Below, one piece after another: positions 8,564-9,364 of a stretch of DNA of 17,414 nt. The notes under the pieces are model-generated. The model saw only the letters and a program-made list of their open reading frames with translations. It had not been told where the DNA came from and did no database searches. The DNA lies in assembly GCA_964016885.1 (NCBI GenBank), contig CAXHJY010000788.1:1-17414 (forward strand), read 5' to 3'. The DNA comes from Eledone cirrhosa. Taxonomy: Eukaryota. How positions within the stretch are numbered: the first letter of the stretch is position 1; every line of letters begins with the position of its first letter. A program made the translations under genes and the position numbers.

Positions 8564-8582
8564 AAGATTTTCTGAAACAAAA

Positions 8583-8637
8583 AAAGTTTCAGAAGATCCC
8601 ATTAAGGGTGAAAGCAGCGATTCTTTGTTTAAACTTT
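8583..8637 (+). ncRNA. Type I hammerhead-like fold (family A) with variant core CAGAAGA
   Basis: Stem I aaagttt(8583-89)/aaacttt(8631-37); CAGAAGA(8590-96); stem II ccc-attaa-ggg; GAAA(8610-13); stem III agca/tgtt; NUH=UUU, putative cut after 8630. Deviations from consensus: U4->A and U.U at 10.1/11.1. Confidence 0.45.
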
Positions 8638-8670
8638 AATCTGTTATTTTAATATATACATATATATATA

Positions 8671-8840
8671 TTATACTTCTCACTCGTTTCTCCCTATTTA
8701 TCTCCTATTTCTAATTCTATCTTCTGATGAAGGACTAGTGACAGAAACGTAAAGACTCTCTTCCTGTAATTTCAAGCATTAAATTAATATATTTATTCAA
8801 TGTACTGTGTCGTTTGTTTTGCTATTTCTGTTTACCTTTT
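8671..8840 (+). mobile_element. Probable Penelope-like pseudo-LTR remnant carrying the minimal HHR
   Basis: Pyrimidine-rich leader, minimal HHR, ATTAAA at 8778-8783 and a GT/T-rich tract, then (AC)44(AT)~12; preceded by (TA)n. Family assignment is inferred from HHR type. Confidence 0.5.
8720..8755 (+). ncRNA. Minimal type I hammerhead motif (family B), Penelope-type, probably decayed
   Basis: tctt-CTGATGA(8724-30)-aggactagtgaca-GAAACGTA(8744-51)-aaga. Intact core, 4-bp stem I tctt/aaga, palindromic ACGT in place of stem III (typical of dimer-acting minimal HHRs of Penelope-like elements), GUA site. Stem II is poorly paired. Confidence 0.65.
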
Positions 8841-8953
8841 ACACACACACACACACACACACACACACACACACACACACACACACACACACACACACAC
8901 ACACACACACACACACACACACACACACATATATATATATATATATATATATA
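8841..8953. repeat. (AC)44(AT)~12 microsatellite
   Basis: Perfect run. Confidence 0.95.
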
Positions 8954-9108
8954 ACGAAGGAAGTGTGGTAATATACCAGGTGGACCATAACGCACCAGAG
9001 TACTCAATACTTAGGGCAGTAGAGTGGGTAATAGGAAAAGAGTCAGGACCCCGACGGCTGAACTCCGGTTGTTTCGACAGCTAGATCAGCTGTCAGAGTC
9101 CTGACTCT
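8951..9108 (-). mobile_element. Family C copy 2 (inverted relative to copy 1), HHR-derived, lacking an intact CUGANGA
   Basis: Minus strand reads agagtcaggactct-GACAGCT gatct AGCTGTC-GAAAC aaccggagttcagcc GTC-ggggtcctgactct, i.e. 14-bp stem I (2 G.U), 7-bp stem II, GAAA, decayed stem III, GUC. It then continues into the same tail as 171-259. Flanked by (AT)n and (CT)n. Confidence 0.65.
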
Positions 9109-9186
9109 CTCTCTCTCTCTCTCTCTCTCTCTCTATATATATATATATATATCTATATATCTATATATATTAAAATAACAGATTAA

Positions 9187-9237
9187 AGTTTAAGCAAAGA
9201 ATCGCTGCTTTCACCCTTAACGGGATCTTCTGAAACT
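9187..9237 (-). ncRNA. Type I hammerhead-like fold (family A, second arm)
   Basis: Minus strand: agttt-CAGAAGA-tcccgttaagggt-GAAA-gca gcgattctt tgc-TT-aaact. Same topology as 8583-8637 with Watson-Crick stem III and a CUU site; same core deviations. Confidence 0.45.
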
Positions 9238-9364
9238 AAAAAAAATCAATCAGTGACCGCAGAAGTAAATATTTCAAAAAAAGTTGCAACCGAAGGAAGA
9301 CGATACATAGACAGAATGAGAAAGTGACAGACAGACAGATAGAGAAGATAGATAGGTAGATAAA

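Follow-up and report, generated by a model that had tools for sequence, protein, structure and literature searches.

Mirrored hammerhead-like motifs in microsatellite DNA of Eledone cirrhosa are probably a pile-up of truncated Penelope-type tails

Minimal hammerhead ribozymes of metazoans occur mostly as solo motifs that have been ascribed to truncated Penelope-like elements (PLEs), and in S. mansoni minimal hammerheads of opposite orientation are paired at distances of ~100–700 bp (Cervera and de la Pena 2014, PMC4209133). The EN+ PLEs Neptune, Nematis and Naiad are described as reaching very high copy numbers and as marked by strong 5' truncation, inverted 5'-truncated copies, partial tandems and a bias toward (TA)n targets (Craig et al. 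2021, PMC8557442). PLEs tend to insert within or beside earlier copies (PMC6765202), and a purified PLE was reported to cut AT-rich targets, where insertion in vitro did not depend on hammerhead cleavage (PMC11167929). Animal non-LTR retrozymes carry type I hammerheads on short non-coding repeats related to PLE pLTRs, organized head to tail in units of 150–450 bp with the same hammerhead in each (PMC7229834; bioRxiv 10.64898/2026.07.22.740005).

We analyzed a 17,414-nt stretch of the E. cirrhosa assembly (contig CAXHJY010000788.1, forward strand), hereafter the window. It is non-coding, microsatellite-saturated DNA of animal appearance, resembling that of cephalopod or decapod genomes, with 70 TRF rows and a GC content of 7–50%; low-complexity masking left 3,494 of the 17,414 bases in unmasked segments. 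A sequence-only reading had described four hammerhead-like motifs from three families (A, B and C, with A twice) in mirror arrangement around a microsatellite. Motif coordinates and order (+A, +B, −C, −A') were confirmed on the sequence, as was the central microsatellite, (AC)44.5 at 8841–8929 followed by (AT)12.5 at 8929–8953. This cluster is very probably an ordinary pile-up of truncated PLE-type tails, likely inserted separately. Its features, and a second copy of family C, are as follows.

66 to 258, plus strand: C2, the second family C copy, with a ~55-bp fold-back centred near 122; it lies between (TA)n tracts, without an adjoining A
8566 to 8585, minus strand: fold-back of family A, a 13-bp arm and the complement of the family's U7 tract
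8585 to 8652, plus strand: 3'-terminal part of family A, shortened from the 5' side; core at 8590, GAAA at 8610, N17 at 8630
~8653 to 8675, no strand: imperfect (TA)n at the 3' end of A, from its sequence a likely insertion target
8676 to 8840, plus strand: family B 3' end, 5' boundary approximate; minimal type I hammerhead at 8720–8755 with core at 8724, GAAA at 8744 and N17 at 8751
8841 to 8953, no strand: (AC)44.5(AT)12.5, the tract at which B and C both have their 3' ends
8952 to 9085, minus strand: 3'-terminal part of family C, cut off within the stem II region; 3' half only of a putative hammerhead, with C11.1, GAAA at 9075 and GUC with N17 at 9053
9086 to 9108, plus strand: inverted duplicate of 9039–9061 of C, source of an apparent stem I and CUGA
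9105 to 9170, no strand: (CT)15(TA)18.5 between C and A', from the tandem-repeat rows
9170 to 9297, minus strand: A', a family A copy, 5' boundary approximate; core at 9232, GAAA at 9212, N17 at 9192

Families A, B and C are likely new families of a known, PLE-type kind. As in the metazoan PLE minimal hammerheads (PMC4209133), the family B majority has a 4-bp helix I, an extra unpaired base after A9, a G10.1–C11.1 pair and a palindromic CG helix III (15.2–16.2). Differences from that set include a helix II of 4 bp in B against 7–8 bp in S. mansoni, U as the last base of the majority triplets (CUU for A, GUU for B) and the long, closed helices III of A and C. The truncation, inverted copies, partial tandems, apparent (TA)n targets and abundance described below are those of Neptune, Nematis and Naiad. 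Naiads, which are described as lacking canonical hammerheads, would fit B poorly and leave A possible, a comparison drawn from tails and not from ORFs. Type I hammerheads on short non-coding repeats are common to the animal non-LTR retrozymes and this locus. Here, in contrast to those retrozymes, adjacent motifs belong to different families, microsatellites lie between them, at least two are broken, and a tandem unit covering the motifs is absent.

Two hammerhead descriptors were used. A relaxed type I descriptor permitting any base at position 4 matched the window only twice, at A and A'; 300 dinucleotide shuffles of the unmasked sequence (3,494 bases) yielded 1 match. A strict-core descriptor in which stem II was not required matched only B, and found matches in 3 of 1000 shuffles. 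Both descriptors were composed after the motifs had been seen, so these shuffle rates are somewhat flattering. C was never matched; three motifs are thus beyond chance and the fourth is coreless, which leaves standing three of the four motifs originally proposed. No hammerhead family appeared among 25 Rfam matches at E≤10 for 8560–9340, and among the 150 of 446 whole-window matches listed only microsatellite-driven miRNA was present, all below gathering score. No RT or GIY-YIG ORF was found in 7800–10000. The family A motif gave 0 matches in viral contigs and 0 in genome contigs, and the family C tail 0 in metagenome contigs and 0 in genome contigs. Five metagenome-contig matches to the family A motif were dismissed as chance, having 54–67% GC and failing to match the masked window by BLAST at E<1e-3.

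Elsewhere in the window, a GA-rich tandem array spans 3730–4159 (period 44–46/92/138, >90% matches). An open 96-aa frame at 12217–12504 (+), flanked by two 21-bp AT-rich minisatellite arrays (11972–12211 and 12518–13846), is presumably similar to the C terminus of an RTE-type LINE protein; it matched 0 Pfam families at E≤1.

Family evidence came from the window itself and from four (X1, X4, X6 and X7) of nine listed public read runs, over 8545–8840; RNA was absent from the listing, which speaks neither for nor against expression. The best run contained only 0.29 of the window's words, so the runs may stem from a relative rather than from the source species. X7 is RAD-seq, and its depths are raw reads, not summed contig depths. 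Families A and B were both present in all four runs, which carry three organism labels. Depth in X7 was 3,592–5,382 over 8585–8644 of A, falling to 0 over 8545–8574, and 3,444–4,852 over the B hammerhead (8705–8764). A and B are thus dispersed high-copy families with a fixed 3' end and varying 5' truncation; C is represented by two copies with the same 3' end. All five 3' ends in the window adjoin TA or CA tracts. Both A copies end in a TA tract, and B enters CA/TA repeats, CA/TA-like loose ends lying behind 8839 in 245 X7 reads. The depth profile of B and its minority letters vary by run (8769–8805, 8706–8740), which suggests that B comprises several subfamilies with the hammerhead in common and different upstream and tail sequences.

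The mirror order and an inverted match of 72/74 positions invite a reading in which A, B, the microsatellite, C and A' move together as an element with 74-bp inverted repeats at its ends, tandem hammerheads releasing 121- and 139-nt RNAs. The A-runs outside both ends of the match could even be read as a target duplication. These A-runs, however, belong to family A, one being its U7 tract and the other the fold-back copy of that tract. The reads bear on the joint between A and B. Just 5' of the B hammerhead, at 8675–8704, X7 depth dropped to 96–366, and the window's letter at 8689, 8692 and 8693 was found in only 1/195, 1/196 and 1/196 reads; 2,200 X7 reads carried other sequence before 8706. 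The A–B joint itself (8644–8678) was excluded as repeat, and its non-recurrence was therefore judged on the 5' flank of B. An amplified A–B unit would have amplified that flank too. No pieces spanning the A–B stretch were listed in X1, X4 or X6. C moreover occurs without A, A' extends beyond the inverted match where A does not, C is coreless and stem II of B is broken, and the copies differ in age. The published non-LTR retrozymes, as described, are tandem repeats of a single unit (PMC7229834; bioRxiv 2026.07.22.740005). We consider the composite element to be scarcely credible and set aside the earlier proposal to this effect.

The N17 positions (8630, 8751, 9192 and 9053) and the 121- and 139-nt spacings between them were confirmed, but monomer excision at these sites was rejected: C is coreless, and the ends of each piece, derived from different families, would re-pair just 2 and 0 stem I bases on circularization. 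In a retrozyme reading, each of these pieces, mostly microsatellite, would join the tail of A through that microsatellite to the 5' portion of a different family; as circles they could not re-form a ribozyme. An A–B hammerhead heterodimer was discarded on inspection, as C15.2 of B would face C16.2 of A.

The supposed 74-bp inverted repeat is a real match, between 8585–8658 and 9237–9164. Over 60 bp, A differs from the family majority at two positions, 8601 and 8628 (40 of 52 rows listed), where 4289/4637 and 4582/4762 X7 reads, respectively, carry a letter other than that of the window. A' has the majority letter at both A/A' differences, and the pair has no derived letter in common. The repeat is therefore two family A members, one of majority type and one with two private changes. 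A' continues ~60 nt past the inverted match; A does not, and 2,411 X7 reads enter from upstream of 8585 in sequence resembling that upstream of A'. If A and A' had arisen jointly, through inverted duplication or through one PLE insertion whose inverted partner captured the B–C stretch, this would account for their 97% identity and for the 8566–8585 segment, which repeats the plus strand of 9225–9245 in A'; inverted repeats are known to flank PLE insertions (PMC8557442). That identity is nevertheless what two family members are expected to show, and the match ends at TA tracts. The two copies lie tail to tail; the inverted copy described in PMC8557442 is at the 5' end instead. Uniform placement would by itself yield ~1–1,200 pairs within 700 bp (assuming 5,000–100,000 copies and 1.5–3 Gb). 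A single A/A' event is accordingly given only a slight chance.

The 8566–8585 segment is one of three inverted 5' arms in the window, carried by A, C and C2. In A, 8566–8578 pairs with 8586–8598 (13 bp). Opposite-strand joints at 8584–8608 recurred in 77 X7 reads and in X1 contigs, and a partial tandem joining 8623 to 8585 was seen in 65 X7 reads with only two start places. No fold-backs or tandems of family B were listed in the runs.

The C motif owes its hammerhead appearance to such an arm. Neither CUGANGA nor CnGAnGA is present in it as a core; CUGANGA strings occur in the window at 8724 and 12214 only, both on the plus strand. Instead, 9086–9108 is an ungapped inverted copy of 9039–9061, identical at 20 of 23 positions with three transitions, two of them at CpG, and the apparent CUGA arises from transitions within this inverted copy of C's own 3' half. 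C folds entirely as one hairpin (z −6.6). The second copy, C2 (compared over 128–257), is identical to C at 109 of 131 positions, and its 3' end falls on the same base ahead of (TA)n. In both, inverted arms replace the CUGANGA box and helix I's 5' strand; both are cut near loop II. The 3' half (C11.1, GAAA, helix III and GUC) is kept, with 5/5 pairs in C2 and 3/5 in C, and the helix III loop is palindromic in C2. At the start of C2, ~55 bp of its 5' end are repeated in inverted orientation, the centre lying in the stem II loop. Judged from the retained half, a full-length C would presumably have a complete hammerhead. A hammerhead with a deleted core was considered for C and rejected, since it needs about two deletions and a substitution against three transitions for an inverted arm, and C2 folds back at the same place. 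Fold-back arms can thus imitate the 5' half of a hammerhead, a warning for motif searches of this kind.

These observations favour the pile-up of separately inserted tails and support the second option of the sequence-only reading, in which different hammerhead-bearing retroelements repeatedly entered a TA-microsatellite hotspot, through the family, 3'-end and fold-back evidence. In the scenario we propose, a PLE GIY-YIG nuclease would nick AT-rich microsatellite DNA, and reverse transcription would begin at the fixed 3' end and mostly halt within 70–170 nt, often at hammerhead hairpins. Halted cDNA could then fold back and copy itself, leaving a short inverted 5' arm. The TA tract would outlast each insertion and, being the same on both strands, would allow later copies to insert in either orientation. 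B and C are more diverged than the A copies, which suggests that they may have arrived first, tail to tail around the central tract, with the two A copies following later. Two observations sit awkwardly with the pile-up: the 5' flank of A is (CAC)n rather than TA, a misfit with insertion in the middle of a TA tract, and the arms of C2 are only ~83% alike, more diverged than one event would give. Four elements in ++−− order within 680 bp would also need targeted, not uniform, insertion, although ++−− is one of 16 strand orders and was chosen after the fact. The mirror symmetry is likely a by-product and the cluster no working unit.

We then consider the motifs as ribozymes. The family B majority contains the CUGANGA and GAAA core, three helices (helix I of 4 bp, helix III of CG) and an NUH site, which is GUU in 3654/4098 reads. 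Its stem II has 4/4 pairs including G10.1–C11.1. The window copy retains 2/4 and has lost 10.1–11.1, being broken at 8741 and 8743; the majority letter at 8741 is found in 3659/4062 reads, and at 8743 the 4061 reads give C 2809 times and U 993 times, both of which pair with G10.1. The stem II loop is variable, with 8739 split 2030/4058. Over 137 bp, B differs from the majority at 13 (X1) to 22 (X7) positions by hand count (40 of 52 rows listed). The copies in the window, that of B included, are probably inactive as ribozymes. The earlier view that all four motifs are defective, and the copy perhaps a fossil, holds for the B and C copies; A' is of family majority type over the stretch read, and the core deviations of A are common to its whole family.

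Family A departs from the conserved core C3-U4-G5-A6-N7-G8-A9 in having A at position 4 in both copies. This CAGAAGA core (U4A), a U·U closing stem II (10.1–11.1) and the CUU triplet are all family-wide. No U4 minority at ≥8% is visible in X1 or X4, since all changes of A reaching that level (in X4, A>T) are placed elsewhere; the twelve rows beyond those listed are weakly supported, so small minorities may exist at other positions. No report of U4A was found in the article texts searched. A complete mutational scan is reported to show low activity for variants of the CUGA turn, a swap of the 3–8 pair excepted (PMC9901934); on this basis family A is likely slow or dead as a ribozyme. Position 17 is U in the majority of both read families (CUU in A, GUU in B). 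U17 belongs to the slowest permitted NUH class.

The family A helices can be drawn with 5 + 8/9, 3 and 5 bp, but this is not the MFE structure. For A the MFE is −21.3 against −5.1 kcal/mol for the hammerhead shape, and the copy's own fold-back is predicted to hide its core; for A' the values are −15.6 and −8.9 kcal/mol. Family A might accordingly be some other repeat end, with the hammerhead shape incidental and not derived from a PLE tail. Three family-wide departures from consensus (U4A, U10.1–U11.1 and U17) point that way, as do the hammerhead form lying 6.7–9.6 kcal/mol above the MFE even in A' and the lack of a hammerhead match in Rfam. No covariation is visible, as the family is nearly invariant. 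Against this, three stems and both core boxes stand in the correct order, an arrangement matched once in the 300 shuffles, and the distal stem I of A' (9254–9246 with 9186–9178), beyond a U-rich bulge, pairs at 8/9 positions. A U·U at 10.1–11.1 is known in natural hammerheads (PMC3088659), including axolotl HHR_Amex2 (PMC7229834), and family A has PLE-type fold-backs and a tandem. An incidental shape is therefore improbable.

Helix I of family A is opened by a U-tract followed by AG (9228–9256, −), and six bases further, within the core, comes a second CAG. This U-tract and AG are a possible 3' splice acceptor, the second CAG being made by U4A itself. In the Penelope element of D. virilis an intron is described as ending at helix I (PMC4209133).

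The cluster itself carries little weight, being a compact case of how microsatellite-targeting PLEs may stack into a mock mirror design. Its fold-back points, clustered in hammerhead hairpins, offer a testable handle on the origin of PLE inverted 5' copies. The core departures of family A are the one mildly interesting point and a lead to keep. Tentatively, and with less than even chances, family A could be an abundant, near-invariant Penelope-type family with a fixed non-canonical hammerhead core and an extended, bulged helix I, either a natural cleaving variant or a fold kept for RT/EN landing, as a fold-back signal or as a 3' splice acceptor; we regard this as unlikely. A high-copy family with a fixed non-consensus core would provide a natural test of whether PLE hammerheads must cleave at all.
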